Shown: positions 23,604 to 64,000, counted from the first letter of the stretch. The stretch: DNA of 64,000 bases from Candidatus Parcubacteria bacterium (GCA_023443725.1 JAEZTF010000007.1:2391-66390), one strand, 5' to 3'. Notes: generated by a model from the letters alone, not told the origin. Made by a program: numbers and translations.

Positions 23604-23624
23604 AAAAATATTCAATCAAAATTT

Positions 23625-24375: not shown

Positions 24376-24435
24376 GAAAATGTTCCTAAAACAGGTACAA
24401 AATTTATTTTTTAGTAATATTTAAAAAAGATTTAG

Positions 24436-26388
<1,953 letters not shown>

Positions 26389-26392
26389 TAAT

Positions 26393-32792: not shown

Positions 32793-32832
32793 TTAAGTAA
32801 TTCTAATTATACCCTATTCTATCCACTTATCT

Positions 32833-34561: not shown

Positions 34562-34571
34562 AAACTATAGT

Positions 34572-35291: not shown

Positions 35292-35294
35292 AGT

Positions 35295-38164: not shown

Positions 38165-38222
38165 ACTTCTAATTTTAACATCTTAAAACTTACTTAATTA
38201 GGTTATAATATAATCTACTTAA

Positions 38223-38307
38223 GCCGAAATGGCGGAACTGGCAGACGCGCACGACTCAAAATCGTGTGGTAGCAATACCATGGGGGTTCGATTCCCTCTT
38301 TCGGCAC
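38223..38307 (+). tRNA. tRNA-Leu (anticodon CAA)
   Basis: Acceptor GCCGAAA/TTTCGGC, anticodon loop CTCAAAA, long variable arm, T-loop GGTTCGATTCC, discriminator A. 85 nt. Confidence 0.85.
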
Positions 38308-38315
38308 AAAAGATA

Positions 38316-39623: not shown

Positions 39624-39630
39624 ATATTTA

Positions 39631-40218: not shown

Positions 40219-40252
40219 TTTTCTCTTTTTGTGATATCATCTAGGTTAGTTT

Positions 40253-40708
40253 ATGTTAAAAGAATTATTTTTGGCCATAGTTTTAGGAGCTTTATTGGGA
40301 TTTGGTATCACTGGTGGTTATCTAGCTATCAATAAAAAAAATAGTCAAAATAATAACTCAGTCGTTATAGTTACTCCAACAATTAAACCAGATCAAGAAA
40401 TTTCTACATTAGAAAATACTACAACAACTAAAAAAGAAGATGGTCTTACTATCAATTCTATTGATGATATGGATATCGTTTCTAAAGAAATTTTAGAAAT
40501 TAATGGGATTACCAATACTCCTAATAATACTATTATTGCTATTTCTGGAGATCAAATAATCAATTCCACTAGCGATCAAGAAGGTAAATTCTCTTTCCAA
40601 ATCAAACTTATTAGTGGTCTAAATAATATTAAAATTACTGCTATAGATAGCAATAATAATCAATTTGAAAAAGAATTAAATATTACTTATTCCACTGCCA
40701 CTATTTAA
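40253..40708 (+). CDS. Hypothetical membrane-anchored extracytoplasmic protein
   Basis: N-terminal TM followed by an Ig-like beta-rich C-terminus. Confidence 0.4.
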   Translation: MLKELFLAIVLGALLGFGITGGYLAINKKNSQNNNSVVIVTPTIKPDQEISTLENTTTTKKEDGLTINSIDDMDIVSKEILEINGITNTPNNTIIAISGDQIINSTSDQEGKFSFQIKLISGLNNIKITAIDSNNNQFEKELNITYSTATI

Positions 40709-40712
40709 AAAT

Positions 40713-41372
40713 ATGACTTTTATTTTACTTATTTTTTTATTTTTATCTTCATTTAAACCTGCTGTAGCTATAGAAGCCTCCTCCTCTGCTAATGATGTTC
40801 AAAGTATTCGAGAAGTTGTTCAACAAAAAGTAAAAGAAAAGCTTAATATAATTACTACTCCTTCTAGTAAAGCAAAAAGTTTTTTTGGATCCATTAAAGA
40901 GATTAAAAATCAACAAATAATTATCAGTCAAAACAATGAGAATAAAACTATTATTATCACTGATGAAACTATTTTTATTAATCTAAAAAAAACTAAAATT
41001 AGTTTTAAAGATATGAAAGTTGGTGATGAAATTTTAGCTATGGGATACATTGATGCCCAAGGTCAGCTTGAAACCAAAAGGATTGTTTTAATTGAATTAA
41101 AAAAAATTAAAAATACTACCCAAGTAATTAATGGACAAATAGTTGACATTTCTCAAAATTCTCCAGTTTTTATTGTTGTTCCATTTAATAATAAGAATAA
41201 TCAATATCAAGTTAAAACTGATTCAAATAATATAAAAAAAATCAGTACTGGTCAAAAAATAATTGCCATTATTAAACCGGATGAAAAAATAGCCAACACT
41301 TTCAATCTTGTAAAGATAATTTCCTCGACATCAACTTCTACAAGTTCGGCAACATCTACCTCAAAACAATAA
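40713..41372 (+). CDS. Hypothetical secreted protein with Ser/Thr-rich tail
   Basis: Signal peptide, with a C-terminal STSTSSATSTS. Confidence 0.4.
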   Translation: MTFILLIFLFLSSFKPAVAIEASSSANDVQSIREVVQQKVKEKLNIITTPSSKAKSFFGSIKEIKNQQIIISQNNENKTIIITDETIFINLKKTKISFKDMKVGDEILAMGYIDAQGQLETKRIVLIELKKIKNTTQVINGQIVDISQNSPVFIVVPFNNKNNQYQVKTDSNNIKKISTGQKIIAIIKPDEKIANTFNLVKIISSTSTSTSSATSTSKQ

Positions 41373-41380
41373 GATATAAT

Positions 41381-42085
41381 CTATTTTAACGGTTCTATCG
41401 TTTGAGTACACTCTAAAAATCCTAATCCAGAAAGATTATTATTTTCTTTATCTAAAAAACCTTGTATTTCCAATGATGGTTCAACGCAAAAATATTTTCG
41501 ATCATATATTTTCCGACCTTCCATCTCTTTAAAAGAAGTCCAAAATTGTCCATACTTAAAACCACTCAAACTCCATTTGTATTTCAACTTACTTGAAATT
41601 TCCAAGATATTTACATTAGATATTATTTTAGACGAATCAGATTTTATTAGCTTATCTATTTTTTTGCCATTTAATTTTACCCCCTGCCAATTATTATTTG
41701 CATTCCAATAATTATGTATTGCTATATTAATTATTCTAGATTTATTACTAAGATTTTTAATCTTAACTATTTGTTTAAAATCATCACCAATTTCAAAAAC
41801 TTGTTTAATATTAAGATCTAAACTTTCTACTTCTATTTCCAATTTTGTTTTATTTTTAAAAACTAACTTCCATTCCATACTTCTAAAAGGACCATGAAAG
41901 GGTAAACCAAACTTTTCCATTCCTTCACTTCCAAAATTCGGACAACAAACATGAGTATTACCTGCTTTTCCATCAATTCTTTCATAAGTCCCCAACACTA
42001 TTTCATTTTTATATTTTAATTCTCTTATTCTTCCCCCATTCAAATCAATTGTTAATTTCCAATCATTATTTTGTATTATTTCCAT
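41381..42085 (-). CDS. Aldose 1-epimerase-like (hexose-6-phosphate mutarotase-like) protein
   Basis: The HGPFRSMEW segment and beta-sandwich character. Low-confidence family call. Confidence 0.4.
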   Translation of the reverse strand: MEIIQNNDWKLTIDLNGGRIRELKYKNEIVLGTYERIDGKAGNTHVCCPNFGSEGMEKFGLPFHGPFRSMEWKLVFKNKTKLEIEVESLDLNIKQVFEIGDDFKQIVKIKNLSNKSRIINIAIHNYWNANNNWQGVKLNGKKIDKLIKSDSSKIISNVNILEISSKLKYKWSLSGFKYGQFWTSFKEMEGRKIYDRKYFCVEPSLEIQGFLDKENNNLSGLGFLECTQTIEPLK

Positions 42086-49725: not shown

Positions 49726-50577
49726 TTTATCTATCAAAAACTCTAGCATTTGATTTACACCTTTTAGCTCTGGTTCACTAGATATCAACCCAGGTTTTTC
49801 TCCAGAAGAGACCAATTTTTTAATAACTTCATGACTATTAGCCGGTACCAAGTTAATTTTAACTTTTCTATTTCTCATTGATGTTTCATCATTTTTACCA
49901 TCACCCAAATAAATGACATCAAAACCTCCAACTAGAGCTTCCATTGCTGTCATTTTGTCTACTCCTATAGGAGTAATATCTACCGCAGTTGACGAATTAG
50001 TAATTACTAACCCATTAAGTAAGTCCTTGTCTATTTTATTTTTTAATAATTCTTTAAAAGTATCGGTATCTCTTTTTCCATCTAAACCAACCGGTGGATT
50101 AAAAGATATACCTAAAACTTTTCCTTCTTCAACTGCTCCACCACAACTAATCCCTAAATCAATTATTTTATCTCTATTATTTCTAAGTAAATTTGCACTT
50201 TCTTTATCAACACAACTTGGTACTTCTTCTATTCCACTCAATCCATCATAAATTATTAATCCACCTTCAACAATATTTTTATCTAAAATTATTCCATTTT
50301 TTTTAGGAAGAAGAACTTCTATTAATCTTTTTGAAAACTCCACTCCTCTCCCAGTTGATAATCCCAAACTTAACCCCATTTTTTTTAATGACACAATATT
50401 TTGCCGAAATAATTGAATTTCTTCTTTATTTTCCCAACTCCATTCTTCCAATGTTTTTTGATTACCTACTGTTTCTAATCCCCCTTCTATCAAACAACCA
50501 TCTACATCCATCAATAAATAACCACCATTATTTTTTAGATTTTCTATTTCCAATTCTAGTTTCCCAAATAGTTTCAT
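49717..50577 (-). CDS. HAD-superfamily hydrolase (Cof/phosphatase-like)
   Basis: DVDGCL (motif I DxDG) and GDGKNDETSM (motif III/IV). Confidence 0.6.
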   Translation of the reverse strand: MKLFGKLELEIENLKNNGGYLLMDVDGCLIEGGLETVGNQKTLEEWSWENKEEIQLFRQNIVSLKKMGLSLGLSTGRGVEFSKRLIEVLLPKKNGIILDKNIVEGGLIIYDGLSGIEEVPSCVDKESANLLRNNRDKIIDLGISCGGAVEEGKVLGISFNPPVGLDGKRDTDTFKELLKNKIDKDLLNGLVITNSSTAVDITPIGVDKMTAMEALVGGFDVIYLGDGKNDETSMRNRKVKINLVPANSHEVIKKLVSSGEKPGLISSEPELKGVNQMLEFLIDKLR

Positions 50578-51641
50578 TATATTTTCTTTTCTAATTTAAC
50601 TACTATTTCTATTTTTTGTTTGTCTCTTACTAATTTCATTTTCACTTCATCCCCTATTTTTCTTTGACTAATAGTTTTAGCAATGGAAACTTTATCATCA
50701 CCCATAATTTTTTGGGCATCAATTTCAATCACAACATCACCAGATTTTATTCCAGCTTTCTCAGCTGGACTATTTTTAGCCACTGACTGTATATAATCAC
50801 CAACTGATATGTTATTTTTTTTGGCTATTTCTTCTGTTACCGTTTGATACATTACTCCCAAATACGGTCGATCAAACTCACCTGTTTTTCTAAAATTATC
50901 CACTGAATTTTTAACTAAATTTATCGGTAAGGCAAAACCAATATTTTGTCCATTCTGAGATACTGCCACATTTACTCCAATCACTTGGCCAATTATGTTA
51001 AACAACGGACCCCCTGAATTACCTGAATTTATGGCTGCATCAGTTTGAATCACACCTTCAAGTTTTTCTGATGCCACTCCTACTCCACCGGCTGTAATTC
51101 CCCTACCTAAACCAGAGATTACCCCTTTTGTTACAGTCGACCTAAACTCTCCCAATGCTGTTCCAATTGCAATTACTGTTTGGCCTACTTTTAATTGATC
51201 AGAGTCACCTAAAATTACTGGTATTAGATTGGTTTGATCAATTTTTAAAATTGCTAAATCATTTATTGGATCACGATAAATATTTTTAACTTCAAAAGTT
51301 TCTTCTCCAATAATTACTTTATACTTGGCTTCGATATCACTTACCACATGTTTATTAGTCACTATTAAACCATCGCTACTAATAATAAAACCCGTCCCCA
51401 CATCCTGTTCAATATTTTTTGTATCTAAACTCAAATTATCGACAATATCTTTATTAATTGAGACAGTCACCACACTTTTAGAAGATTTTTCCACTACTCC
51501 AATCGTTGTCGATTCTTCTTCAATTAATTGACTAATTAATTTAGCATTTTTTTTATTTAATTTCAGTCCAAAAAATATTCCACTTTCAAATATTAATATC
51601 AATAAAATTATTATTAAAATTAAGTTTTTTTTATTTTTCAT
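50577..51641 (-). CDS. htrA: HtrA/DegP-family serine protease with PDZ domain
   Basis: Trypsin-like catalytic triad context (TNKHV, D, GNSGGPL) plus a C-terminal PDZ domain. Confidence 0.85.
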   Translation of the reverse strand: MKNKKNLILIIILLILIFESGIFFGLKLNKKNAKLISQLIEEESTTIGVVEKSSKSVVTVSINKDIVDNLSLDTKNIEQDVGTGFIISSDGLIVTNKHVVSDIEAKYKVIIGEETFEVKNIYRDPINDLAILKIDQTNLIPVILGDSDQLKVGQTVIAIGTALGEFRSTVTKGVISGLGRGITAGGVGVASEKLEGVIQTDAAINSGNSGGPLFNIIGQVIGVNVAVSQNGQNIGFALPINLVKNSVDNFRKTGEFDRPYLGVMYQTVTEEIAKKNNISVGDYIQSVAKNSPAEKAGIKSGDVVIEIDAQKIMGDDKVSIAKTISQRKIGDEVKMKLVRDKQKIEIVVKLEKKI

Positions 51642-52821
51642 TCAAAACTTCCATGGCCTTTTCTAATTGCAAATCTTTACTGGCATCAGTTCCTGCTTCA
51701 ACTTCTATATCAGCAGCTACCCCTTCTCCATGAATATTTTTTCCACTTGGCAACAACCATTTAGCAATAGTTACATGTAATCCACTTCCATCACTAAAAT
51801 CTTCTGGTTGTTGAACTGTCCCCTTACCAAAAGTTTTTTTGCCTACCAATTTGGATCGATTATATTCTTTTAATGCTCCAGCCAAAATTTCTGATGCCGA
51901 AGCACTACCTTCATTAACTAAAACCACTAATTTTTCCTTTAATAAATTTCTTCTAGATTGATCCACTTTATATTCCTGAGTTAAGCCAGTAGTTGAATCC
52001 TGTTTCACAACTACTCCATCAGAAATCAAATCTGAGGCTACAAAAACACTAGCTTCTAAATAACCGCCAGGATTATTTCTCAAGTCCAACACAATTCCTC
52101 CAAAATTATTTCCTTCATTATTTTTGATTTCATTAACTACTATTGGCCATTCTTTAAAAACATTTTCTGAAAATTTATTCAATTTTACCCAAGCTATTTT
52201 TTTACCATTTAACTCTTTCCATTCTAATTCCACACTTTTAACCACAATATTATCTCTTTTTAAAACGACATCAAATTTACCTTTATCTTCTCGATACATT
52301 GTTAAAATAACCTCACTGCCTATTTTCCCCCTAATAAGCTTAACCGCTTCAGCTAAACTGATTCCGGTTGTATCTTTATCAACTTTATTACCTTTATCCA
52401 CAATCTTTAAAATCAAATCATTTGTTTTTAATCCAGCTCTTTCAGCTGGTGTATCTGATAAAGTCGTCATTACTGCCAAAGTTCCATCTTTATAACCCAA
52501 AGATATTCCGACTCCTCCAAACTCACCTTCCAACTCTTCATTAGAACTCTTGTTTTCTTCTGGTGTTAAATAAACTGTATACGGATCACCAATAGACGCT
52601 ACCATACCTTTTATCGCTCCATATTCCATTGATTTCTTGTCTATTTTATTTTTATCCAAATATAACGATGATAGTCGATCTTTTACTTTCCACATCATTG
52701 ATAAGTCCAACTCGTTTTTGTCAATAATTTTATATCCTTGGCCAACCCTAAAACTAACTAAAGAAACAACCGAAAGTATGGCTAAAACCAAAAAAATATT
52801 TCTTATTTTCTTAAACTGCAT
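51631..52821 (-). CDS. C-terminal processing peptidase (S41, CtpA-like) with PDZ
   Basis: PDZ domain, S41 catalytic Ser context (GSASASEIL) and a Lys downstream. Confidence 0.8.
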   Translation of the reverse strand: MQFKKIRNIFLVLAILSVVSLVSFRVGQGYKIIDKNELDLSMMWKVKDRLSSLYLDKNKIDKKSMEYGAIKGMVASIGDPYTVYLTPEENKSSNEELEGEFGGVGISLGYKDGTLAVMTTLSDTPAERAGLKTNDLILKIVDKGNKVDKDTTGISLAEAVKLIRGKIGSEVILTMYREDKGKFDVVLKRDNIVVKSVELEWKELNGKKIAWVKLNKFSENVFKEWPIVVNEIKNNEGNNFGGIVLDLRNNPGGYLEASVFVASDLISDGVVVKQDSTTGLTQEYKVDQSRRNLLKEKLVVLVNEGSASASEILAGALKEYNRSKLVGKKTFGKGTVQQPEDFSDGSGLHVTIAKWLLPSGKNIHGEGVAADIEVEAGTDASKDLQLEKAMEVLNEK

Positions 52822-52824
52822 TAT

Positions 52825-53565
52825 TTATTCTAACACTAATAATAATCTTCCCATATTGGAATTTAATAAAAATCGATTTTCACCTATTTTCATTTTTAAT
52901 AATTCTTCCCAGGTATCATTATTTAAATACAAAGACGGTATTTTTATTTTTAATTCATCCACTTTAGTATTAGTTATTATTCCAACCACTCCAACCACTT
53001 CCGCTTTCAACAAAAAAGTATTTTCCAAATTATTAGTAAATAATATTTTACCGTCCATGTTTGGACCTAACTGTTCCAATCTATTTATAATATTTAAATT
53101 ACCATCACCCCAAGTTTTACCTTCAACCAAAGTTTCACCATTAAACTCTTTAACCCAAAAATCTAGAATTATTTTACCATCTTCAATCTTGGAGATTTTG
53201 GATTTTACTGGTGCTTTTATTTCTTTTTTATTACCCAAATCAATTTCTATTTTTAAACTTCCAAATTCATTTAACTCCAAAAACTTACCTGATATAGGAA
53301 AACAAATTTTTTTCTTTAAAAAACCACCTTTAACGCAAAAAAGATCTCCTTGATTTATTAATTCATTCTTAAATTTAGAATTTAAATCATTTATAACTTC
53401 TAAACCTATATTTTTAAATATTTCTCCATAGTTATAACTTTTTATATCTAAATTTTCAGATTCAGCCAAAATTTGGTCTTTTTCCACCACATCTCCAACA
53501 CTTACCATAATTTTGGACCTTTCTGGTAGTTTTATTATCCACTTTGTTTTAATCTTATCTTTCAT
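52825..53565 (-). CDS. Hypothetical protein
   Basis: No motif recognised. There is a possible N-terminal lipoyl/barrel-sandwich-like segment. Confidence 0.3.
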   Translation of the reverse strand: MKDKIKTKWIIKLPERSKIMVSVGDVVEKDQILAESENLDIKSYNYGEIFKNIGLEVINDLNSKFKNELINQGDLFCVKGGFLKKKICFPISGKFLELNEFGSLKIEIDLGNKKEIKAPVKSKISKIEDGKIILDFWVKEFNGETLVEGKTWGDGNLNIINRLEQLGPNMDGKILFTNNLENTFLLKAEVVGVVGIITNTKVDELKIKIPSLYLNNDTWEELLKMKIGENRFLLNSNMGRLLLVLE

Positions 53566-53640
53566 CTATCTATTATAACCAAAAATCTCCTTGAGAAACA
53601 CCCAAGGAGATTTCAAAATCTATTTTAGTTTTGTTGAAAA

Positions 53641-53895
53641 TTACTGAGTCACAAAAGGTAATAAAGCCAAATGTCTTGCTTGTTTTATGGCTGCAGCTAA
53701 TTTTCTTTGATGTTTAGCACAAGTGCCATTATAAATTCCAGCAATTATTCTTCCTCTAGGAGACAAGAAATCATAAAACTTATCGTAATCTTGCCACTTA
53801 GGATCATTACCAGACTTGCAAAAAGAACAGCCTTTTTCTTTACCTTTTCTTTTAGCTATCAATAAATTGTCTTTTTTACCTTTTTTCTTAATCAT
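53641..53895 (-). CDS. rpsR: 30S ribosomal protein S18
   Basis: YDKFYDFLSPRGRI...KHQRKLAAAIKQARHLALLP. Confidence 0.85.
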   Translation of the reverse strand: MIKKKGKKDNLLIAKRKGKEKGCSFCKSGNDPKWQDYDKFYDFLSPRGRIIAGIYNGTCAKHQRKLAAAIKQARHLALLPFVTQ

Positions 53896-53903
53896 AAAAA
53901 CTA

Positions 53904-54437
53904 TTAGAAGGGCATTTCCTCCCCTTTGTTATCATCATTAGTAACTTGATTTGATGGTACGGTTTGATCTGTATTAATATCATCTGGAATAACTATATCA
54001 TCTATACTTCCAGTTTCTTCCATAGCAGGAGCCTCACTTTGTCCCTCTAGATCTGCGTCCATAGATTGGTGATCACCATTACCCTTATTATCCAAAATAA
54101 TCATATCGTCAATAATAATTTCAGTTATTTGTTTTTTATTATTTTCATTGTCAGTAAATTCTCTATATTGAATTCTACCGTCAACATAAATTCTTCGACC
54201 TTTAGATAAAAGTTGAGAACACAACTCGGCTAATTTATTCCAAGCCACTATTCGATGAAATTGAGCATCTTCCTTTCGTTCACCTTGTTTGGTTACCCAA
54301 ACTCTATTAGTAGCCAATCCGAAAGAAGCTACAGCCATACCACCTGGGGTATATCTTAACTCTGGGTCACGAGTCAAATTACCAATTAACATTACCCTAT
54401 TCAGACATCTGCTAGGCATATTCTTTTTTACTCCCAC
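53904..54437 (-). CDS. ssb: Single-stranded DNA-binding protein
   Basis: OB-fold N-terminus RVMLIGNLTRDPELRYTPGG and an acidic C-terminal tail ending EEMPF. Confidence 0.85.
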   Translation of the reverse strand: MGVKKNMPSRCLNRVMLIGNLTRDPELRYTPGGMAVASFGLATNRVWVTKQGERKEDAQFHRIVAWNKLAELCSQLLSKGRRIYVDGRIQYREFTDNENNKKQITEIIIDDMIILDNKGNGDHQSMDADLEGQSEAPAMEETGSIDDIVIPDDINTDQTVPSNQVTNDDNKGEEMPF

Positions 54438-54461
54438 ACTTGTGGAAATCCTCCATATTCT

Positions 54462-54752
54462 TTAAATTTTTAAAATTAAATAACGAATAATATTATTTTC
54501 TCGATTTAATAAGACATTTAATTCATTTAGTTTTAATGTAGACGAAGAAACCAAATCTAAAATCCAAAAATCACCAGTTTTATTACCTTTAATCTCATAA
54601 ACCAACTCTTTAATTCCCATATGGTCTTTCTTTTCAACTTCAACTTCTCGACCCGAAAGCCAATCAGTTACTTTTTTAAAAGCGTTTTCTTTTTCTTCAG
54701 TCTTTGGGTTTAAAACCAAAACTAATTGATATTTATATTTTTTTTCTTTCAT
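54462..54752 (-). CDS. rpsF: 30S ribosomal protein S6
   Basis: Conserved rpsF-ssb-rpsR arrangement, with YQLVLVLNP at the N-terminus. Confidence 0.8.
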   Translation of the reverse strand: MKEKKYKYQLVLVLNPKTEEKENAFKKVTDWLSGREVEVEKKDHMGIKELVYEIKGNKTGDFWILDLVSSSTLKLNELNVLLNRENNIIRYLILKI

Positions 54753-54794
54753 GAACTCAATAGATTAACATAAATTGTTTTTTTTAACAATATT

Positions 54795-56177
54795 TTATTT
54801 ATTAATTTTCCTTATTTTACACTCATCTTGTAAATCTTCAACCAGATATCCTTTATTTTTTATCTCCTCTCTAAGTCTATCAGACTCTAACCAATTTTTC
54901 TCTTCCCTAACCTTTTTTCTTTTATCTACCAAATCCCAAATTTCTTGGGGTATTTTCTCATCTTCTATTTTCTTGTTTAAATCTAAATCCAAAACTTTAT
55001 CAAAATCTGCAATTGTCGCTTTTTTATCTTCATTTTTAATATTCTCATCTTTAGTTAATTTCCAAATCAATGCCAAGGCCTCTGAAGTTAATAGATCATT
55101 AGACATTAGTTCAATAAATTGATTTTTATAATCTTGATTAATTTGTCCATTGTCTCCCCAATTACTCAATAAATTTCTTAATTTGAATAAGGCTGTCTGA
55201 CTAGATTTTAAAGAATCAATTGAAAATTCCAAGCCTTTTCTATAATGTGAAGTCAATACTAGATATTTATGAGCCAAAGGATCATAACCCATTTCTACTA
55301 ATTGTTGTGCCGTATAACCATTACCTAGGCTTTTACTCATTTTTTCTCCACCTTTTAAAGTTAACCAAGCATTATGAATCCAATAATTTGCTGTTTGATG
55401 ACCAAAAGCACCATAACCTTGAGCAATTTCATTTGTGTGATGAACTCCAATGTGTTCAATTCCACCAGTATGGATATCAAAAGTTTCTCCTAAATATTTA
55501 GTTGACATTGCCGTACATTCTAAATGCCAACCCGGGAAACCTTCTCCCCAGGGTGAGTTCCATTTCATTATATGATTTGGTTGATTCGTCACCCACAACA
55601 AAAAATCCCAAGGGTTTTTTTTCTCGATATCAATTTTTACTCTATTGCCCACATCCATCTCTGTCAGTTTCAAATTAGCAAATTTTGCATAATCTTTGAA
55701 CTTTGAAGTATCAAAAACTAAACCAGTTTCTGTTTTATAACTAAAACCATTGGCTTCAATTTTTTTAGCCAATTCAATTTGTTCATTTATATGTTCTGTA
55801 GCTCGACATAAAATATCAGGTTTTTGAATATTGAATAAATCGAGGCTTTCAATAAATTGTTTTTCATATTTTTTAGCAATTTCCCATGGCGTTAAACCTT
55901 CACGAGCAGCTCCTTTTTCCATTTTATCTTCTCCGGTATCTGCATCCGATGTTAAATGACCAACATCTGTTAAATTCATCACCCATTTAACTTTATATCC
56001 AACATATCTTAAGAAATTAACCAAAGTCCCCCATTGTGTATAAGCATACATATGACCAATATGTTGATTCCAATAAACTGTCGGACCACAAGAATAAATT
56101 CCTACTTCATTTTCTTTAACAGGTACGAGTTCTTCCTTTTGTCTAGAAGCTGTATTATATAAAAAAACTTTTTGCAT
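54795..56177 (-). CDS. cysS: Cysteinyl-tRNA synthetase
   Basis: Class I motifs HIGH (NQHIGHM) and KMSKS, with Zn-binding Cys residues. Start trimmed to MQKVFLYNT. Confidence 0.9.
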
Positions 56178-56195
56178 ACAGACCAATTATACCAA

Positions 56196-56696
56196 CTAAT
56201 TCACTTTTCCCTTAAACTCTTGTGTTTGTGACATTTGCGATTGATCTGGTTGTGATTTTTTCTTATGAGCCAAAGCACTTCCTCTAGATTTTTTTTGTTT
56301 GGCTGGATTAGTTGATTCCATCATTAAATTATTATTATTTTCCGCAATTTGCTGTGCTTCCATTTCTTTTTGTTGTTTTTCTTGTTCAAAATATTTTTCT
56401 TTTTCTTCCTCTTCTTTTTCCTTCTGTTGTCTAATTTGTTCTATTTCATCCTCAACTTTTCTACCTAAACCCATTTCTGATTTTATTTTTCTAATTTCTT
56501 CTTGTCTTTTGATTTCATCTTCTTGTTGTTCATGGGCCAATTGATTATTATCTACTCCTCCTTCTAGTCCTAACAGTTCTTTACCAGTAATAGTTGTCTC
56601 CAATATCCTTTGGCTTTCTTCACCTAATTTCTCTACTGTTTCATCAGCTAATTTTTTAAAACCCTTACCAATTCCTTTTATTATTTGATTATTCAT
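56196..56696 (-). CDS. Hypothetical E/K/Q-rich coiled-coil protein
   Basis: Low-complexity charged repeats. Confidence 0.3.
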   Translation of the reverse strand: MNNQIIKGIGKGFKKLADETVEKLGEESQRILETTITGKELLGLEGGVDNNQLAHEQQEDEIKRQEEIRKIKSEMGLGRKVEDEIEQIRQQKEKEEEEKEKYFEQEKQQKEMEAQQIAENNNNLMMESTNPAKQKKSRGSALAHKKKSQPDQSQMSQTQEFKGKVN

Positions 56697-57124
56697 AATT
56701 GATCTGAAAATATTTTTTTTAAATCTTTTATATTTTGATAATTAAACACTAACACTCCTGGACAACCAGATATCATAGCTGATAATTTTCTACCTTCAAT
56801 TTTTCTGTATATACAAATTACCTTCTTTTTGAATTCCGTTGCTCGAGCAATTTCTATTCCTACTCCAAAACTCGGATGAGTTACCTCAGCTATTAACACA
56901 TCACTCATTTTTACCCAATTAATATCTCGTTTATAAATTTCTTTATCACTAATCTTTTCTCCAAATTGAGTTAATTTATCACTACCAATATGTTCAGTCA
57001 AAACCTTACCATATTCTTTTAATTCATTAATTATTTCCAAATAAATTTCTTTATCATCTCTACCTCCAGTAATCGATCCAGCAAAATATATCTTCATAAA
57101 ACTATTATATATCTCTTCTTCCAT
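56693..57124 (-). CDS. Nucleoside 2-deoxyribosyltransferase-like / DNPH1-like protein
   Basis: KIYFAGSITGGRD N-terminal motif and a Rossmann-like fold typical of the PF05014 family. Confidence 0.45.
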   Translation of the reverse strand: MEEEIYNSFMKIYFAGSITGGRDDKEIYLEIINELKEYGKVLTEHIGSDKLTQFGEKISDKEIYKRDINWVKMSDVLIAEVTHPSFGVGIEIARATEFKKKVICIYRKIEGRKLSAMISGCPGVLVFNYQNIKDLKKIFSDQL

Positions 57125-57716
57125 CTAAAGCCCGACTTAAGGTAGCTTGATCGGCATATTCTAAATCTGCCCCCATTGGTAAACCACTACCAATTCTAGT
57201 TATTTTTAAATTTTTTATTTTTAAATCTTCTAATTTCTTTTTTATATACAAAGCGGTCGCTTCACCTTCCATTGTTGGATTTGTAGCCAAAATAATTTCC
57301 ATTTCTTTATCAAAATTCTTTACTCTTTCAGCTAATTCATTAATTTTTAAGTCATCAGGACCAACGTGATCTAACGGATTTATCACCCCTCCTAGAACAT
57401 GATAAGTCCCTTTAAAACCACCCATATTTTCAATCGCCATCACATCTATAGCTCTTTCAACAACACAAATTAATAAATGATTTCTCTTTTCATCATTACA
57501 AATAGTACAAACATCTTTTTCACTAACCGAAAAACAAGTTCGACAAATTTTAATTTCATCTTTCATTTTGACTAAACAATCAGCTAATTCTTTTACATAT
57601 GTTTTTGGCGTGTTCATCAGATAAAAAGCTAACCTTGCCGCTCCTTTTGGACCAATTCCTGGCAACCTCTCAAAAGAAGTAATTACATCTTTAATTGCCT
57701 TTGGAAAATCCGCCAT
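57105..57716 (-). CDS. recR: Recombination protein RecR
   Basis: HhH N-terminus, C4 zinc finger CRTC...CTIC and a Toprim domain. Confidence 0.9.
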   Translation of the reverse strand: MADFPKAIKDVITSFERLPGIGPKGAARLAFYLMNTPKTYVKELADCLVKMKDEIKICRTCFSVSEKDVCTICNDEKRNHLLICVVERAIDVMAIENMGGFKGTYHVLGGVINPLDHVGPDDLKINELAERVKNFDKEMEIILATNPTMEGEATALYIKKKLEDLKIKNLKITRIGSGLPMGADLEYADQATLSRALDGRRDI

Positions 57717-57718
57717 AT

Positions 57719-57967
57719 TTAAAACAAACCTTCAAGTCCACCCATATCCTTCATTCTTTTTGCTGCCATTTCCTGAGATTTTTTCATCGCTTTGTTTATA
57801 GTATCTACCAATATTTTATTTTCTCCTCCATTAATCGATAGAGATTTTATTTTTTGATCACCGCTAACCACTACTTTTATTCCACTTTCTTCTACTTCTA
57901 TAGTTTCTGCTTCTATTGCCTTTTTTAATTTATAAGCTTGAGCCAACATTTTTGCTTTATCAAACAT
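57719..57967 (-). CDS. ybaB: YbaB/EbfC nucleoid-associated protein (short)
   Basis: Conserved dnaX-ybaB-recR synteny. 82 aa, helical. Confidence 0.75.
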   Translation of the reverse strand: MFDKAKMLAQAYKLKKAIEAETIEVEESGIKVVVSGDQKIKSLSINGGENKILVDTINKAMKKSQEMAAKRMKDMGGLEGLF

Positions 57968-58008
57968 AAATATTTTTAATTATTAATTTTAATTATTAAT
58001 TGTATCAT

Positions 58009-59535
58009 TTAACCAAATATATCCTTTGCCACATCATACAAATCTTTTTTTTCATCTTTAGCGTCATTTACCAATTCTTGACTAATACTTTCTATAGGAG
58101 TGTCATTATTAATAACTAATGGTTTTTTCTTATCTTTGGTTAAAACACACTCAAAAGTCATATCTGTTCCCAAAACGCATTTTAAACCATCTTCAACAAT
58201 TTTTTTATTTTTTATTTCTTCCAATCTATCTTTGTGAAACGGATAAAAAACCTCTACTATCAAACATCTACCTTCAACTGATTTTGGTTGGGTCGCTCTC
58301 AAAAAAGCCTCCACTGAATGATTAAATGGTTTTACTGTCATCAATAAATTTCCCCAAACTTGTTTAACTTTATCTATATCAACCTCCATATCCGATTTTA
58401 TTTCTATTTTCTGACTTTCAACTATTCTTGGTTTTTCTGTCTTAGTTTCCAATTTTTCTTCACTTTTATCTTTTTCTTTGACCTCACTAATCCCTTCTTC
58501 TTTGTCTAAAAAATCAATTACCGCTAATTCTATAGGTAATTGTTCTATTTCAACATCTTTGCTTTGTTTTATAGCTCTAATAAGTAGATCAATTAGTCTT
58601 TCTAATTCTTTTAACTCAAACTTACTTTTATTTCCCTCTCCAATATCAAAGTTAAGCAATAATTTATTCTGAAAATATTCTAATAATCTATCGGTAAAAT
58701 TTTTAATATCCACTCCCTTATTAGTCAAATGTTCGATCTTCTCTAAAATCGGTTTTGTATCACCTATTAATAGATCTAATTCAAATTGATCTTCTGTATA
58801 TTCACCTCCAATACTATTATAAAAACTTTCCACTGACCCCAAACTTATTTCATTTCCAATATTTAAATAAATTTCATTAAAAATTCGATGTAAATTACGA
58901 AAACTTCCATCACTCTTACTAACTATCAAATCTATAACCTCATTTTCTACTTTTAAATTTTCTCCTAAAATAACTCGTTCTAAAGACTTAGTTAGTTCCT
59001 TTTTAGTTCCTTTTTTAAAATCTAATCTCATCAACCTTGATAAGACTGTCTCTGGAATTTTTTCTGGATCAGTAGTACATAAAACAAAAATAGTATGTTT
59101 TGGCGGTTCCTCTATCAATTTTAATAATGCATTAAAAGCATCTTTAGTCAGCATATGAACCTCATCAATAATAAAAACTTTCTTTTTTAAATTACTCGGC
59201 ATCAAATATGCTTTATCTTTTAATTCTCGAATATTTTCTATTCCTCTATTTGAGGCTGCATCAATTTCTATAATATCCATATCTCTACCTTCCAGTATCA
59301 TTCGACAGTTTTCACATTTTCCACAAGGTTCTCCGTTTTTTAAATCAGAACAATTTACCGCTCTAGCTAAAATTCTAGCAGCAGAAGTTTTACCAGAACC
59401 TTTTGGTCCAACAAACAAAAATGACTGAGGCATTTCTTTAGCCATTAAAATTTTCCTCAAACCATCAGCTGCTTGTATTGAATCTAAGTCTGAAATAAAA
59501 ACTGGTCTATATTTTAAATAAAAAACGGACATCAA
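58009..59535 (-). CDS. dnaX: DNA polymerase III subunit gamma/tau
   Basis: Walker A GPKGSGKTS, Zn module CSDLKNGEPCGKCENC and SRC-like box. Confidence 0.9.
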   Translation of the reverse strand: MMSVFYLKYRPVFISDLDSIQAADGLRKILMAKEMPQSFLFVGPKGSGKTSAARILARAVNCSDLKNGEPCGKCENCRMILEGRDMDIIEIDAASNRGIENIRELKDKAYLMPSNLKKKVFIIDEVHMLTKDAFNALLKLIEEPPKHTIFVLCTTDPEKIPETVLSRLMRLDFKKGTKKELTKSLERVILGENLKVENEVIDLIVSKSDGSFRNLHRIFNEIYLNIGNEISLGSVESFYNSIGGEYTEDQFELDLLIGDTKPILEKIEHLTNKGVDIKNFTDRLLEYFQNKLLLNFDIGEGNKSKFELKELERLIDLLIRAIKQSKDVEIEQLPIELAVIDFLDKEEGISEVKEKDKSEEKLETKTEKPRIVESQKIEIKSDMEVDIDKVKQVWGNLLMTVKPFNHSVEAFLRATQPKSVEGRCLIVEVFYPFHKDRLEEIKNKKIVEDGLKCVLGTDMTFECVLTKDKKKPLVINNDTPIESISQELVNDAKDEKKDLYDVAKDIFG

Positions 59536-59613
59536 TTAGGATTAAACCATTGTTATCATTTCTTTACAATAACATTTTCTATATCAACAAATTTTTTTAA
59601 TATATCAAACCAT

Positions 59614-59979
59614 CTATCCTTTTAATAAATTTTCCACCCCATGAACCAACCAGCTATATAGTACTTTTTCTAAAGTTGATTTTTGAAATTTGACTTCATA
59701 TTTTAGTTTTTGAGTACAAATCACGATATCTCCCAACCTAATCATTCCATCAGCATCTTTTTTTATCGACATTGGAAATCCCAAAACCTGAGGAATATAA
59801 CCCATATTTCTATATCTCAAATTTAAATCTTTTGCTTTTTTCCGACCAACAAAAAAAATACTTAATTCCACCCCATCATTAAATCCCTTACTTTTTAAGG
59901 CTTTTAATGACAATTTTTCGACTAAATGTTCACTTAATCCCCAACTTTCTGGATGATTAATCAAGATTATATTAGACAT
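59614..59979 (-). CDS. YbeY-like protein with truncated or degenerate metal-binding motif
   Basis: LGDIVICTQ and VLYSWLVHGVENLL align with the YbeY LGDIVIS...VHGxLHLxGYDH region, but the ORF stops after the first His. The H-x3-H-x5-H triad is incomplete. Confidence 0.45.
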   Translation of the reverse strand: MSNIILINHPESWGLSEHLVEKLSLKALKSKGFNDGVELSIFFVGRKKAKDLNLRYRNMGYIPQVLGFPMSIKKDADGMIRLGDIVICTQKLKYEVKFQKSTLEKVLYSWLVHGVENLLKG

Positions 59980-60409
59980 TAGATAATTTTTCTCTGACTA
60001 TTCTCGATACTAGACTTCCATCAACTGCCCCTCCTAATTGAGCCATTGCTTCTTTCATCACCAAACCAAAATTGTTTCCTTTATCAAGAATAATTTTCTC
60101 TACTACTTCTATAACTTGGTTTTCTTCAATCGCTTGAGGTAAATATGTTTTTAAAACTTCAATTTCATAGTTCAGTTGTTCAACTAAATCATTCCTATTA
60201 CCTTTTAAAAACATTTCTTTTGATTCCTCTTTATTTTTTAATTCCTTTCGCAAAACCACCAATTCATCAGACTCAGTCATCTGACCCACTGGTAATTGCA
60301 TCTCTTTTTTATCAATTAAAGAAATTAAAAACCGCAAAATATCCACTTTGGTATTTTCGTGTTTTTTTAGTGCTTCAACACTATCTATTTTTAATTTATC
60401 TTTGATCAT
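59972..60409 (-). CDS. GatB/YqeY domain protein
   Basis: Family-typical helical repeats, positioned between rpsU and ybeY-like as in Firmicutes-like operons. Confidence 0.7.
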   Translation of the reverse strand: MIKDKLKIDSVEALKKHENTKVDILRFLISLIDKKEMQLPVGQMTESDELVVLRKELKNKEESKEMFLKGNRNDLVEQLNYEIEVLKTYLPQAIEENQVIEVVEKIILDKGNNFGLVMKEAMAQLGGAVDGSLVSRIVREKLSNV

Positions 60410-60614
60410 GTCTTCTGGAATTTTTAGCTCGTCTGCGACATTTATCTCGCCAAACGATTATTTTTTTCTTAGCATATCTTTTTTCAGATGGTTTAACATA
60501 AGCAGTTCTTTTCTTAACCTCTTCTGTTATATCTTCTTCAAGACACAACCTTCTGAATTTACCGATAATATCGTCTTTTGATTCACCTTTTTTCTTTTTA
60601 ACTATAATTGGCAT
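60396..60614 (-). CDS. rpsU: 30S ribosomal protein S21
   Basis: MPIIVKKKKGESKDDIIGKFRRLC...KPSEKR and a basic C-terminus. Confidence 0.75.
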   Translation of the reverse strand: MPIIVKKKKGESKDDIIGKFRRLCLEEDITEEVKKRTAYVKPSEKRYAKKKIIVWRDKCRRRAKNSRRHDQR

Positions 60615-60663
60615 GTAAAAATTGCCACCTCCTTTTAATTTAACAATCGCTTATTTTACCTTA

Positions 60664-61353
60664 TTAGTCAGCACTTTGTAAACAATTGACTCGATCCAAA
60701 CTATTAATCACTCCATCGCTATTATAGTCGGCAACTGTTCCACTACATTTAGAAGCAGCCGAAGACGTAATTTTGGGAGTAGGAATAGTCGTATTTGTTA
60801 TCGGTGCAATTTTTCCACCTTGCTGTCGACAATAAATCATATCTACTGAATTAATTGTTCCATCTTTATTATAATCGTTACCATTTTTACATTCAGTTCC
60901 AGTATTTACTAACGGAGTCGAAGTTACTATTGGAGATGGTGTTGTTGTTGCCACTGTATTTTCACCTTTAGTTTTAAAAGTATAAGGAATGCCTCCATTA
61001 TCAAACACATCTTCACCAATTCGAATTCTATAATAATAAGTTGTACTAGGTCTTAAAGAAGTCAATAAAATTTTATGATTTGTGGTTGAATCACTTTCGA
61101 CCGACATCAGTACTAAATTAGCCGCAGTTGTTCCGTATTCTACTTTTGAAATAGATGCTTTATCAGAGATCCAAGATATAGTTGCTGTTTTTCCATCATC
61201 AGACGAAGTCGCAACTACTCCCGACGGCTCTACATCACTAGTAGCACCACTCATAAACGTTTTGATAGTTTTGATTCCAAATACACCCAAAACAGTCACT
61301 ACTAATAATACAACTAATATAACAACAGTCTTAACGTTTAACTTTCCCTTCAT
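60664..61353 (-). CDS. Membrane-anchored surface protein: FN3-like domain plus two Cys-bracketed dockerin-like Ca-binding repeats
   Basis: N-terminal signal anchor. FN3-like ISWISDKASISKVEYGTT...STTYYYRI. Repeats CKNGNDYNKDGTINSVDMIYC and CSGTVADYNSDGVINSLDRVNC match the DxNxDGxINxxD dockerin/EF-hand-like pattern. Confidence 0.5.
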   Translation of the reverse strand: MKGKLNVKTVVILVVLLVVTVLGVFGIKTIKTFMSGATSDVEPSGVVATSSDDGKTATISWISDKASISKVEYGTTAANLVLMSVESDSTTNHKILLTSLRPSTTYYYRIRIGEDVFDNGGIPYTFKTKGENTVATTTPSPIVTSTPLVNTGTECKNGNDYNKDGTINSVDMIYCRQQGGKIAPITNTTIPTPKITSSAASKCSGTVADYNSDGVINSLDRVNCLQSAD

Positions 61354-62042
61354 AAGAATTTCAAGAAAACTGCCGAAAATAAACTCATTAAGCCAACTGC
61401 AATTAAACCTACGGTCACTCCAGTGCTACCAGTTTGAGGTAGTGAGGTACTAACAGCAGTAGGAACAGCTGTCGATGAAGACGAAGTTGGTGTTGGAGTA
61501 TTAGAACTACCTGAGCCAATGACATATGAACCTGTCTGATTAGAGCTACAAGTAATAATATCCACAATAGAAGAAACTCCAATAATATTGGAATCTTTTG
61601 TTGATGTACTACAAGTATAAGATAGAGTTGCAGTCCCAGTATTAGTTGCTTTAAAAGTTAATTTAACCAAAGAACCATTAACCGTAGAATCACCAACAGT
61701 ATCATTAGCCCAACAACTATAACTTATAGTACCAGTTTCTTTTTTAATACTACACGAACCACCTCCTTCAACATTTGAAAAAACCATATCTTCCGCTTGT
61801 ACAGCTGATGTTAATTCTAATTTTGAAGAGTCATAAACCACTATACCATCAACTCCTCCAGTAGCTTCACTTCCAGAGTTAACACCCAAAGTTACATTAA
61901 AAGTATCATTAACATTGTAATTTCCAGTTGTAGGGTTGACAGTTAAATATGCTGTCGCATTCACTGCTTTCACCCCTACGGCTAAAAAAGCAAAACATAA
62001 AAATAAAATTAAGGCAGCTTTTTTCATTTTATTTAGTAACAT
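61350..62042 (-). CDS. Cohesin-like domain surface protein with LPQTG sortase anchor
   Basis: Signal peptide, a cohesin-like beta-sandwich pattern (GVDGIVVYDSSKLEL), a Ser/Thr-rich linker and a C-terminal LPQTG followed by a hydrophobic segment and basic residues. Confidence 0.55.
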   Translation of the reverse strand: MLLNKMKKAALILFLCFAFLAVGVKAVNATAYLTVNPTTGNYNVNDTFNVTLGVNSGSEATGGVDGIVVYDSSKLELTSAVQAEDMVFSNVEGGGSCSIKKETGTISYSCWANDTVGDSTVNGSLVKLTFKATNTGTATLSYTCSTSTKDSNIIGVSSIVDIITCSSNQTGSYVIGSGSSNTPTPTSSSSTAVPTAVSTSLPQTGSTGVTVGLIAVGLMSLFSAVFLKFL

Positions 62043-62646
62043 TAATATCTAACTTTCCACCAGTCCAACCTAATGATTTAGATGTACCAGTTTCTACTAT
62101 CAGAGTGTCATACTTCTTATCGAGACTATCATTACTCAACTCTAAGTTGTAATTCCCTTCTTCAAGTAGAGTTATATTAAAACTCAACACATTAACCTCT
62201 TTACCGCTCTCTAAGATTAATCCTTCTTTTTCTTCTATTAATAAAACATTGCTTAACATACCAGTCTCGTTATCTATTTTACTTATTTCTGGTTTTACTA
62301 ATTTAGAGTTGGAAACCAAATTAGTAATTTTAAATATTTCTGGATCATATTTAATATATGTCTCTAATCCATCAATAGTTTTGTTTTCAATCGAATTCAA
62401 AACTAAATCAATTTTATAAGTTTTTCCAAGTTTCATTTCAGTAGGAGTTTTAGAGTTCACTTTAAAGCCAAAATTAATCACTGGATCTTCTACAACCACT
62501 TCTTCTGTTGGATTTTTTTCTTCCACTTTACTACTTTGATCAACTTCAGTAGGCTTTTCTAAATTATTAACCAAAACAATACTCTCAAAAACTACTACTA
62601 TGGCAACTAATGGAATCAAAAACTTAATTAATTTATTGTTATTCAT
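62029..62646 (-). CDS. Cohesin-like domain protein, N-terminally membrane-anchored
   Basis: Signal anchor, with the IDGLETYIKYDPEIFKITN cohesin hallmark (x-YD-P-x-x-L). Confidence 0.45.
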   Translation of the reverse strand: MNNNKLIKFLIPLVAIVVVFESIVLVNNLEKPTEVDQSSKVEEKNPTEEVVVEDPVINFGFKVNSKTPTEMKLGKTYKIDLVLNSIENKTIDGLETYIKYDPEIFKITNLVSNSKLVKPEISKIDNETGMLSNVLLIEEKEGLILESGKEVNVLSFNITLLEEGNYNLELSNDSLDKKYDTLIVETGTSKSLGWTGGKLDINVTK

Positions 62647-62675
62647 ATTTTAATTATAAACATAATAATTTAAAT

Positions 62676-63929
62676 TTATTCATCATACTTTGCTTCTAAA
62701 GCAACTTTAAATAATTTAACATCAAATTCATTAACAATTCCATCACCATTTAAATCAGTATTAATACCACAGCCAGTTGTAAATAAAGCGGTTTTAATCA
62801 CCGAGAAATCAGCTGTATTTACTATTCCATTTTGATCAACATCTCCCGCTAGAACTGGATATTCATAGAAATTATTAACTGTTCCATCTAAAGACAGATT
62901 ACAAATCTGGCTAGTGTTCTTAGATGATTGACTCTTAACACAATAATACATTCTGGCATGAACTTGACCTTTTATTTTTACATAAATATTACTCGCTCCA
63001 GAAAAACCAGTTCCTAAAGCCACATTATCAGCTCCAAAAATAGCATAACCTTTACTATTAGTTAAATCTGTTTTTGTTACATCTGCAGACATTTCTTGAA
63101 CTAAAGTCGTTCCTACTTTACCCACTGTCAGAGTTACTTTTTTAAAATTATCTAGACAACTAAGATTTGCAGGAGCCACTCCGTCAAAAGCAAACTTAAA
63201 TGAAAGTTTAGCTCCTACTCCACCACAAACACCATTTTGACAAGCTTGATTAAAAGCACATTGATCACCTTGTATCCAAGCCGTACCATCACTATTACAT
63301 TTCTTTAAGTGAGTAGAGTCATAACATTCTGTTGTAGAAACAGTGTCAGCTGTACAAATTATTGAAGGTCCTGGGCCTGGGCCTGGGCCTGGGCCACCAC
63401 CAGATTTACAATCTCCAGTAGCCATTACACAAACACCAGAACTACAAGTTGTAGGACTTCCCCATTTACTATCATCGCCACAAATTTGTGTTTGTGATGA
63501 TGAGTAACATCTTTTTGTACCTTTAGTGCATTTTGTAGTATCAATAGGAGCAGTACAAGAATTATTAGTACATTTTCCAGATGCACATTGATTATCAGCA
63601 ATACAAGAACAACCTACAGGTTTATTAGCAACCATACTACTACAAATAGAAGAACATAATCCACCAGCATTACATGCACCAGATGCACATTGAGAAGCAC
63701 TACTACAAGAACAACCATCAGCTCTCCCAGTTGTACCAGTACAACTAGATCCTCCAGATTTTGGACACAAACTATCAGTCGCTGTCCCTTGACAAGCTGA
63801 AATACTATCATATCCAGTACCAGAATTGTTAATAGTACAATCGTAAAGACCTGTACTCGTATCACATCCACTTCGATTATATGTTGCAGGAATAATAGGT
63901 GAAATACATTTATCAGTAGATTTTTGCAT
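62676..63929 (-). CDS. Cys-rich extracellular protein with (GP)n linker and a C-terminal dockerin domain; N-terminus or signal peptide not resolved
   Basis: More than 50 Cys in an EGF/knot-like N-terminal region, GPGPGPGPGPG at the linker, and C-terminal duplicated dockerin repeats GDVDQNGIVNTADFSVIKTAL and DLNGDGIVNEFDVKLFKVAL. There is an in-frame stop 11 codons upstream of the ATG and no signal peptide at the annotated start. Confidence 0.5.
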   Translation of the reverse strand: MQKSTDKCISPIIPATYNRSGCDTSTGLYDCTINNSGTGYDSISACQGTATDSLCPKSGGSSCTGTTGRADGCSCSSASQCASGACNAGGLCSSICSSMVANKPVGCSCIADNQCASGKCTNNSCTAPIDTTKCTKGTKRCYSSSQTQICGDDSKWGSPTTCSSGVCVMATGDCKSGGGPGPGPGPGPSIICTADTVSTTECYDSTHLKKCNSDGTAWIQGDQCAFNQACQNGVCGGVGAKLSFKFAFDGVAPANLSCLDNFKKVTLTVGKVGTTLVQEMSADVTKTDLTNSKGYAIFGADNVALGTGFSGASNIYVKIKGQVHARMYYCVKSQSSKNTSQICNLSLDGTVNNFYEYPVLAGDVDQNGIVNTADFSVIKTALFTTGCGINTDLNGDGIVNEFDVKLFKVALEAKYDE

Positions 63930-64000
63930 CGTTCCAGAAACACAAATGTAAAAATATCCATCTATACATGATTTTTGACCAGGATCACTACATCCAATAA

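Follow-up and report, generated by a model that had tools for sequence, protein, structure and literature searches.

Bacteria in the Candidate Phyla Radiation (CPR, Patescibacteria) are believed to live bound to other cells, and to our knowledge almost nothing is known about their attachment and partner specificity beyond type IV pili. Could a small set of surface proteins that plug into one another take part in such contacts? This question is raised by four genes, here called g1 to g4, which encode cohesin-like and dockerin-like modules and lie at the end of a 64,000-nucleotide (nt) stretch of genomic DNA (GCA_023443725.1, JAEZTF010000007.1:2391-66390; the whole stretch is referred to as the window). 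We read the locus as a non-enzymatic cassette of four genes for surface display by cohesin and dockerin, carried by an uncultured, ultra-small bacterium of the Candidatus Shapirobacteria (Microgenomates, CPR/Patescibacteria) and built from components more familiar from cellulose degraders, and put the probability of this reading at roughly 60%.

Open reading frame (ORF) calls in the last 3.3 kb of the window agree with the four consecutive minus-strand genes that a preliminary description of this DNA had listed. The gene at the window edge, g1 (62676 to >64000), has 633 codons, of which the window contains the 440 at the 3' end; it encodes a Cys-rich protein that is secreted or anchored and ends in a dockerin. 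It is followed by g2 (62029-62646), whose product of 205 amino acids (aa) contains no Cys at all and consists of an N-terminal hydrophobic segment, an acidic linker and a cohesin-fold domain at approximately residues 56-205. The 230-aa product of g3 (61350-62042) combines a Sec-type signal peptide with a single cohesin, a Ser/Thr/Pro linker, the motif LPQTG, a hydrophobic segment and a terminal KFL, and that of g4 (60664-61353; 229 aa) has a hydrophobic leader, an FN3-like domain, a Thr/Pro linker and two disulfide-bracketed dockerin-type Ca loops. The gap between g1 and g2 measures 29 nt, g2 and g3 overlap by 14 nt and g3 and g4 by 4 nt (ATGA), and the four genes are probably co-transcribed. 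Scans for transcription signals were uninformative: no terminator-like site was found between g1 and g4 in a scan that found no terminators at all, and promoter-like sites were rarer than in shuffled sequences. The window has a G+C content of about 30%.

Both g2 and g3 had been proposed to be cohesin-like. For g3, the proposal agrees with a Pfam match (Cohesin, PF00963, 34.1 bits at a cut-off of 24.1) and with a search of the PDB using its family profile (alignment A3), which retrieved the cellulosomal cohesins 4ums (ScaB, E 5.5e-4), 2vn5 and 1g1k, with E values up to 2e-3. Judged from these matches, the g3 domain is most likely a cohesin. Its homologues are called 'cohesin domain-containing protein [Candidatus Shapirobacteria bacterium]' or 'LPXTG-motif cell wall-anchored protein' at NCBI/JGI, and P0096 and P0134, two direct g3 homologues (46-59% identity), carry an automatic NCBI cohesin label. 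The homologues of g2 are annotated as 'hypothetical', several of its orthologues having a precomputed PF00963 match, and g2 itself scored 22.4 bits and thus remained under the Pfam cut-off. Because of this sub-threshold score the protein was modelled, after 51 homologues had been collected and 36 of them aligned (A2). The AlphaFold (AF2) model of residues 56-205 has a cohesin fold, with a core whose predicted local distance difference test (pLDDT) values are mostly above 90. In a Foldseek search against the PDB, the top 44 matches were all cohesins, and the best was 6kgf_C, the CohA2 cohesin of Clostridium acetobutylicum in a dockerin complex (E 6.5e-10, target-normalised template modelling (TM) score 0.77, root-mean-square deviation 2.7 Å). 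A generic Ig or FN3 fold, set beforehand as a refutation of the cohesin assignment, was not what the model gave. The g2 family profile found the ScaC cohesin 5lxv in the PDB (E 0.011), and the g2 and g3 profiles aligned to each other with a hhalign E of 1.5e-5, the two families being remote homologues. Single-sequence searches of the PDB with g2 and g3 returned no matches; these came from the profiles alone.

The two cohesin proteins appear to be anchored in different ways. In g3, a signal-peptide protein, the predicted cell-wall sorting signal is present as LPQTG (61428-61442, minus strand), followed by 22 mostly hydrophobic residues and KFL. Across 52 homologues, the most distant of which has 27% identity, L201, P202 and G205 of this motif are invariant and T204 is at least 90% conserved. 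The N-terminal hydrophobic segment of g2, KFLIPLVAIVVVFESIVLV, has no AXA-like or otherwise obvious cleavage site and is directly followed by the acidic linker, features consistent with a helix that acts as a membrane signal-anchor. As a separate observation, this helix (residues 8-27, window 62566-62625) is conserved beyond the needs of a mere anchor in 36 orthologues down to 36% identity: K8, L10, I11, P12, A15, E21, S22, L25, V26 and L29 are invariant in alignment A2, and two of them, Pro12 and Glu21, lie inside the hydrophobic stretch. Such conservation may point to an intramembrane partner.

On the dockerin side, g1 ends, as had been described, in a duplicated dockerin segment. The two F-hand repeats (62697-62849, minus strand) match Dockerin_1 with 29.4 bits at a cut-off of 22.9 and cover positions 1-56 of the 57-position profile; the full-length protein P0001, introduced below, scores 28.4 bits. 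The loops DVDQNGIVNTAD and DLNGDGIVNEFD, each of 12 residues, are 29 residues apart and are followed by helix-length segments. Searched against the PDB, the family profile (A4) found solved dockerins across both repeats, including 8x39 (6.8e-6) and CelS 2mte (3.4e-5). By its sequence, the g1 dockerin is canonical. It is always directly preceded by a beta-rich domain (KLSFKFAF...VHARMYYC...NNFYEYP; 62844-63209, minus strand) with many invariant columns in A4, which is also present in the distant relatives at the loci L002, L005 and L007.

The g4 protein carries a variant of this module. Its two Cys-bracketed dockerin-like loops, proposed together with an FN3 domain, match Dockerin_1 with 26.9 bits (cut-off 22.9), and the FN3-like part matches Pur_ac_phosph_N, an FN3-like sandwich, with 38.8 bits. 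Accordingly, the profile of alignment A5 retrieved from the PDB both FN3 domains and the dockerins 2y3n (2.2e-4) and 4fl4, the latter across both loops. The dockerin-like region (60682-60891, minus strand) has the arrangement C155-x4-DYNKDGTINSVD-x3-C175, a variable linker, and C203-x5-DYNSDGVINSLD-x3-C224. In an alignment of 21 orthologues with 38-58% identity, none of the four Cys varies, nor do the loop positions D160, D164, G165, D171 and D209, while G214, N217 and D220 are at least 90% conserved. Although the loops themselves are canonical, an invariant Cys pair closes each of them, the second Cys standing 3 residues after loop position 12. The linker between them is of low complexity and varies in length, with a start-to-start spacing of about 37-49 residues. 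At its other end the protein has a hydrophobic N-terminal leader with a conserved FMSGATS. The FN3-like domain (window 60970-61227) also serves as the repeating unit in giant proteins, which span 1,000-6,300 aa and contain as many as 39 stretches that match it; in a library of 1.84 billion proteins, it gave 5,808 matches at E <=0.001.

Is this combination of genes peculiar to one contig? Homologues of g2 and g3 are labelled Candidatus Shapirobacteria bacterium by NCBI, whose taxonomy places this group in the Microgenomates group of Patescibacteria. At three related loci (L005, L007 and L010), the gene order runs from frr over small leader-bearing Cys-rich genes, rseP and one or two large Cys-rich dockerin genes to g2, g3 and g4, and continues with rpsU, yqeY, ybeY, dnaX, ybaB and recR. 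The g3 orthologues of the relatives are 55-59% identical (56% in L005 and 59% in L007, GCA_028710865.1), and L010 shows 78% nt identity. The adjacency of g1 to g4 is likewise kept on every short contig that we recovered (L001, L008 and L009). A search for contigs that encode g2 and g3 gave just one of 2.6 kb with identical sequence, and exact searches with 60 nt from the window edge had no match among genome and metagenome contigs. Since the order is kept across relatives, the cassette belongs to the stable backbone of the genome, where it is inherited vertically, and is not an island. A genome search of GTDB for related loci yielded only three distant ones, L002, L003 and L004 (CAZWUG010000023.1, CAYSVP010000002.1 and CAZPDN010000013.1). 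These three are titled 'uncultured Gammaproteobacteria bacterium', a label that is probably wrong. L002 holds a protein with leader, Cys-rich region and dockerin beside rpsB, frr and rseP, as in the Shapirobacteria loci.

This conservation bears on whether the modules bind each other at all. The four genes might merely encode co-located surface proteins without mutual plugging, with the cohesin folds serving as beta-sandwich spacers and the dockerin-like repeats as Ca-binding stabilisers, as is presumed for a good number of such modules in non-cellulosomal proteins; the genes would then be neighbours simply because all four encode envelope proteins. Such a reading gains from the identity to solved cohesins of only 10-16% (the fold matches of g2), from the sub-threshold Pfam score of g2 and the atypical loops of g4, and from a review that describes as unclear what such modules do outside cellulosomes (PMC9012536). 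Chance, however, hardly accounts for a conserved, operon-like unit that contains two modules of either kind. Moreover, the dockerin of g1 fits the full Pfam model in canonical form, and archaeal non-cellulosomal pairs bind specifically, according to work cited in the same review. We therefore consider an arrangement without binding to be unlikely and return to the display cassette.

Before its cargo can be described, the extent of g1 has to be clear. The preliminary description regarded the N-terminus as unresolved and named a frameshift, an assembly problem, a non-canonical start or a split gene running past the window edge; of these, only the continuation beyond the edge stood, and the gene is not split. 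Read from 62676, the g1 frame stays open up to the final complete codon that the window contains (translation 62676-63998). The ATG at 63929 is an internal Met, and the in-frame stop reported 11 codons upstream is not there, the TAG at 63964-63962 being out of frame. A protein search identified P0001 (633 aa), which is 100% identical to all 440 in-window residues; its record places it on a contig of 202 kb, and a protein of equal length (633 aa) from its 90%-identity cluster is encoded on one of 77 kb. The N-terminal 193 aa, leader included, thus lie beyond the window edge. P0001 starts with MIYFFIRSIFSEIKMNKVNRQKGFSQIILLVIISFLAIALPITIRLVQQNQENRSSAAT, in which a charged n-region is followed by a hydrophobic helix and by an S-x-A that may be a cleavage site. 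Two further details of the preliminary description need correction. More than 50 Cys were an overstatement: we count 33 from the ATG at 63929, 36 within the window and 50 in full-length P0001. The end coordinate 63961 is the ATG of a spurious ORF of 115 aa (63614-63961, minus strand), which overlaps g1 in another frame.

A damaged or mis-assembled g1, by frameshift, split or non-canonical start, could have been suspected, as no signal peptide precedes the ATG at 63929 and an internal duplication of about 80 aa spans the window edge, the window ending inside its second copy. The open frame up to the edge, together with the intact 633-aa P0001 and its leader, shows that there is no frameshift, assembly error or odd start and refutes this explanation, and g1 orthologues of 548-754 aa share the architecture of P0001. 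What likelihood is left for it is negligible.

The leader itself opens another possibility, namely that g1 is a modular type IV pilin or pilus adhesin whose leader (..RQKG|FSQIILLVIISFLAIALP..) is cut by a prepilin peptidase, in which case the type IV pilus would display the protein and the dockerin would serve some other end. The sequence resembles the KGFTL(V/M)ELL leaders of the true pilins encoded at window positions 1827-3837, next to a PilD gene (3833-4609), and pili are thought to mediate CPR-host contact (PMC7143001). Yet P0001 has no N_methyl (PF07963) match even at E 0.1, a test that is passed by 9 of the 10 scanned ORFs of the pilus locus (19-5327) with 21.8-33.9 bits, eight of these being pilin-sized. 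Moreover, g1 lacks Glu5 and has an Ile at position 5, its paralogues with the downstream motif LVQxNQENRSxA do not have the G-F junction, and it is with the cohesin genes that g1 is syntenic, the pilus locus being about 50 kb away. We rejected the pilin reading of the leader on the failed N_methyl test and regard it as very improbable. The pilus locus itself appears complete (window 19-9429, minus strand): in addition to the ORFs with N_methyl matches, one more matches only T2SSG, and three ORFs at 5370-9429 are read as PilC, PilT and PilB from position and size alone.

With the full protein at hand, g1 turned out to be a mosaic. Eleven orthologues have in common the leader, a 45-aa six-Cys module, and the beta-rich domain with the dockerin, so that both the leader and the C-terminal 227 aa are conserved. 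The middle part, 315-530 aa long, is essentially unalignable, with an identity of 17-32% versus 56-95% for the C-terminus. This is also evident in the comparison with the closest strain (P0003, locus L009), in which leader, middle and last 177 aa of g1 are 93%, 30% and 95% identical, compared with 92% for g2 and 97% each for g3 and g4. At the DNA level, L009 (94% nt identity) and L010 (78%) align to the window in blastn only from 63358/9 downward, without any upstream alignment. The homology boundary is therefore sharp at the same position in two independent relatives, and it is located directly after a (GP)5 linker (GPGPGPGPGP; 63366-63395, minus strand; residues 202-211 of the in-window translation by regular-expression search), the (GP)n run that had been noted in the Cys-rich protein before. 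Downstream of the linker, the six-Cys module (ICTADTVSTTECYD...NGVCGG; 63225-63359, minus strand; alignments A1 and A4) is the first conserved element. Upstream of it extends the strain-variable Cys-rich cassette, whose in-window part (63360-64000, minus strand) includes two GCSCxxxxQCASGxC modules, part of the internal duplication and a 51-nt direct repeat (D1). The position of the boundary suggests that the low-complexity (GP)5 run is a recombination junction for cassette exchange.

A possible source of such cassettes is found nearby. In related genomes, the g1 heads have Cys modules in common with dockerin-less paralogues around rseP, for example with 56% identity over 223 aa within one genome. 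Leader-bearing Cys-rich genes flank this site-2 protease gene in L005 (3027-7671), L007 (504-9350), L010 (6355-12253) and L002 (4372-8594). We also observed that one leader, a hydrophobic helix followed by LVQxNQ(E/D)NRS(S/K/Q)A, is common to this local family of Cys-rich secreted proteins, both with and without dockerin. It occupies residues 15-59 of P0001, outside the window, and the motif was absent from every frame of the window; neither the leader nor the Cys-rich modules of g1 had a match in Pfam and NCBIfam scans. The shared leader could be a lineage-specific sorting or processing signal. With about 40 Cys, the g1 head is expected to need extracellular disulfide formation, and an extracellular disulfide-forming system of the MdbA/VKOR type is enriched in CPR (PMC6744442).

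How could these parts work together? We rely on the observed domain identities, anchoring motifs, synteny and mosaic structure of the locus, and from these we infer each step of binding, processing and function in the following scheme. The g3 protein would be exported by Sec and covalently linked via LPQTG to peptidoglycan by a sortase, so that one cohesin is presented on the wall. A second, divergent cohesin would be presented by g2, held in the membrane by its uncleaved N-terminal helix. The exported g1 and g4 proteins would bind to the g2 and g3 cohesins through their C-terminal dockerins in a Ca-dependent manner and would thereby be kept on the cell surface. The functional cargo would be g1, in which a conserved 'plug' of six-Cys module, beta domain and dockerin is joined via the (GP)5 linker to a disulfide-rich head. 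This head may be exchanged from strain to strain by recombination with the neighbouring dockerin-less paralogues, and it is most plausibly an adhesin or a ligand-recognition surface directed at a partner cell or at a substrate.

A bolder version of the scheme takes the cassette as a 'plug-and-socket' host-recognition organelle that is present throughout the Shapirobacteria, with the conserved, wall-bound or membrane-bound cohesins as the socket, a receptor-binding protein with a swappable head, and programmed variation as the principle. The head would then be swapped at the fixed (GP)n junction from a bank of adjacent dockerin-less paralogues and would set the specificity for the partner or host, or would evade the defences of phage or host. 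If true, this would be a variation system of an episymbiont built on cohesin-dockerin chemistry. We consider this extension speculative and rate its chances as low.

The preliminary description had further characterised the content of the locus as non-cellulolytic, and this holds: g1 to g4 and their orthologues have no Pfam match to a carbohydrate-active enzyme (CAZyme) or a carbohydrate-binding module (CBM), and such families were also missing in the seven other dockerin-bearing g1 homologues that were scanned. With one cohesin per cohesin protein and no CAZyme or CBM match at this locus, it is not a cellulosome. Could g2 and g3 nevertheless be the anchors of a minimal cellulosome- or amylosome-like system, whose partner enzymes, glycoside hydrolases or proteases with dockerins, are encoded elsewhere, with g1 and g4 as accessory passengers? 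A ScaE-type cohesin can take up a wide range of dockerin proteins (PMC5301203), Microgenomates were reported with more glycoside hydrolases than other CPR (PMC7143001), and our view covers 64 kb of the genome. Within these 64 kb, however, no further dockerin motif was found, the dockerin proteins of the related loci have no match to a Pfam enzyme family, and the strict co-inheritance of exactly g1 to g4 argues for a joint function. An enzyme-anchoring role thus appears improbable to us, and the non-enzymatic cassette is preferred.

Several points weigh against the preferred reading as well. The hidden Markov models for LPXTG anchors scored g3 just below their cut-offs (PF00746, 15.1 versus 20; TIGR01167, 14.8 versus 15.9), which is due to the tail having one Lys, and no sortase motif of the TLxTC type was present in any ORF of the 64-kb window; sortase was described as 'near ubiquitous in Microgenomates' (Meheust et al., PMC6744442). 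If the hydrophobic leader of g1 stays uncleaved, the protein is already anchored in the membrane, and its dockerin would then have another role. The 'dockerin' of g4, with its truncated, disulfide-closed helices and long linker, may not be a cohesin-binding module. Finally, the dockerin and beta domain of g1 were modelled with low confidence, so that the dockerin fold relies on sequence comparison. In the model of the C-terminal 227 aa (overall pLDDT 54.7), the beta domain reached about 40-69 and the dockerin less than 40, and the only confidently modelled part was the six-Cys module with 81-94. A fold search with this poor model gave no match below E 0.03, a result that is meaningless at a pLDDT of 54.7.

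The remainder of the window provides the genomic context. Located 3' of g4 are rpsU, yqeY, ybeY, dnaX, ybaB, recR, a nucleoside deoxyribosyltransferase-like gene and cysS (labelled from Pfam matches of the orthologues). On the plus strand, 10157-11284 and 14456-19261 encode a Fic/DOC-family protein with a DeoR-like helix-turn-helix, a membrane protein with PAP2 and LssY_C, and a HlyD / ABC / MacB-FtsX export system. The GC skew ranges from -0.2 to -0.44 at 30001-42000 and 50001-64000, where genes lie on the minus strand, and from about 0 to -0.12 at 10001-30000, where they lie on the plus strand. As it is strongly negative for minus-strand genes and near 0 for plus-strand genes, the skew is asymmetric with gene orientation; a disparity in strand composition has been described for a Microgenomates genome (PMC7143001).

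What would the cassette add to the systems that are already known? To a specialist, the modules alone are unsurprising, and if they do not bind each other, the locus is merely another annotated occurrence of cohesin and dockerin. The two-plus-two operon with its swappable head, in contrast, offers a testable lead on CPR attachment, in which the strain-variable, disulfide-rich head of g1 is the candidate specificity determinant. As cohesin, dockerin and sortase signal are individually well understood, concrete predictions follow, namely Ca-dependent pairing and wall anchoring. We found no literature on the four-gene unit or on cohesin-dockerin pairs in CPR in a limited keyword search of open-access papers. 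The nearest case within the Patescibacteria is SEML1_0315 of Southlakia epibionticum (Saccharibacteria), a dockerin-domain envelope protein that was essential in transposon sequencing (Tn-seq) and for which a role in host adhesion was speculated (PMC10633639). What it has in common with the present locus is a dockerin on an envelope protein of a Patescibacterium; the organism belongs to another CPR lineage, and cohesins are not mentioned in that paper.

Cohesin and dockerin modules outside cellulosomes are a class already recognised (Peer et al. 2009, FEMS Microbiol Lett 291:1, as cited in PMC9012536), and the locus belongs to it. It shares with this class the occurrence of single cohesins and dockerins on proteins unrelated to plant cell-wall degradation, as in the pairs of Archaeoglobus fulgidus, and the cohesins of Clostridium perfringens (2jh2/2vo8) were among the fold matches of g2. 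A role of such modules in the assembly of surface complexes or in cell-cell contact has been suggested, the latter for the archaea known as ANME (PMC9012536). The present locus differs from other members of the class by its compact two-plus-two operon, which is syntenic and embedded in housekeeping genes, by the combination of wall and membrane anchors, and by the cassette-variable cargo. If binding holds, it may count as a distinct variant by virtue of its second cohesin with a membrane anchor, its disulfide-stapled dockerin and its variable cargo.

The closest parallel in architecture is ScaE of Ruminococcus flavefaciens, a single cohesin that is anchored by sortase through LPXTG; it binds the XDoc at the C-terminus of CttA, a non-catalytic adhesion protein, and that of ScaB (PMC5301203). 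Like ScaE, g3 has its one cohesin between a signal peptide and a linker that leads to an LPXTG signal, and the genes are clustered in both systems. Its presumed partner g1 resembles CttA, as it is non-catalytic and has a conserved module directly before the C-terminal dockerin; this pre-dockerin domain, modelled with low confidence, may or may not correspond to the Ig-like X-module of XDoc. The two systems differ in that neither a multi-cohesin scaffoldin nor any CAZyme or CBM was detected here and that the organism is a CPR bacterium and not a Firmicute, whereas the hypervariable disulfide-rich cargo head, the membrane-anchored second cohesin of g2 and the disulfide-stapled dockerin variant of g4 set the Shapirobacteria locus apart from the ScaE system. 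The cassette would thus extend the ScaE-like logic of a sortase-anchored single cohesin beyond the Firmicutes and beyond the degradation of polysaccharides.

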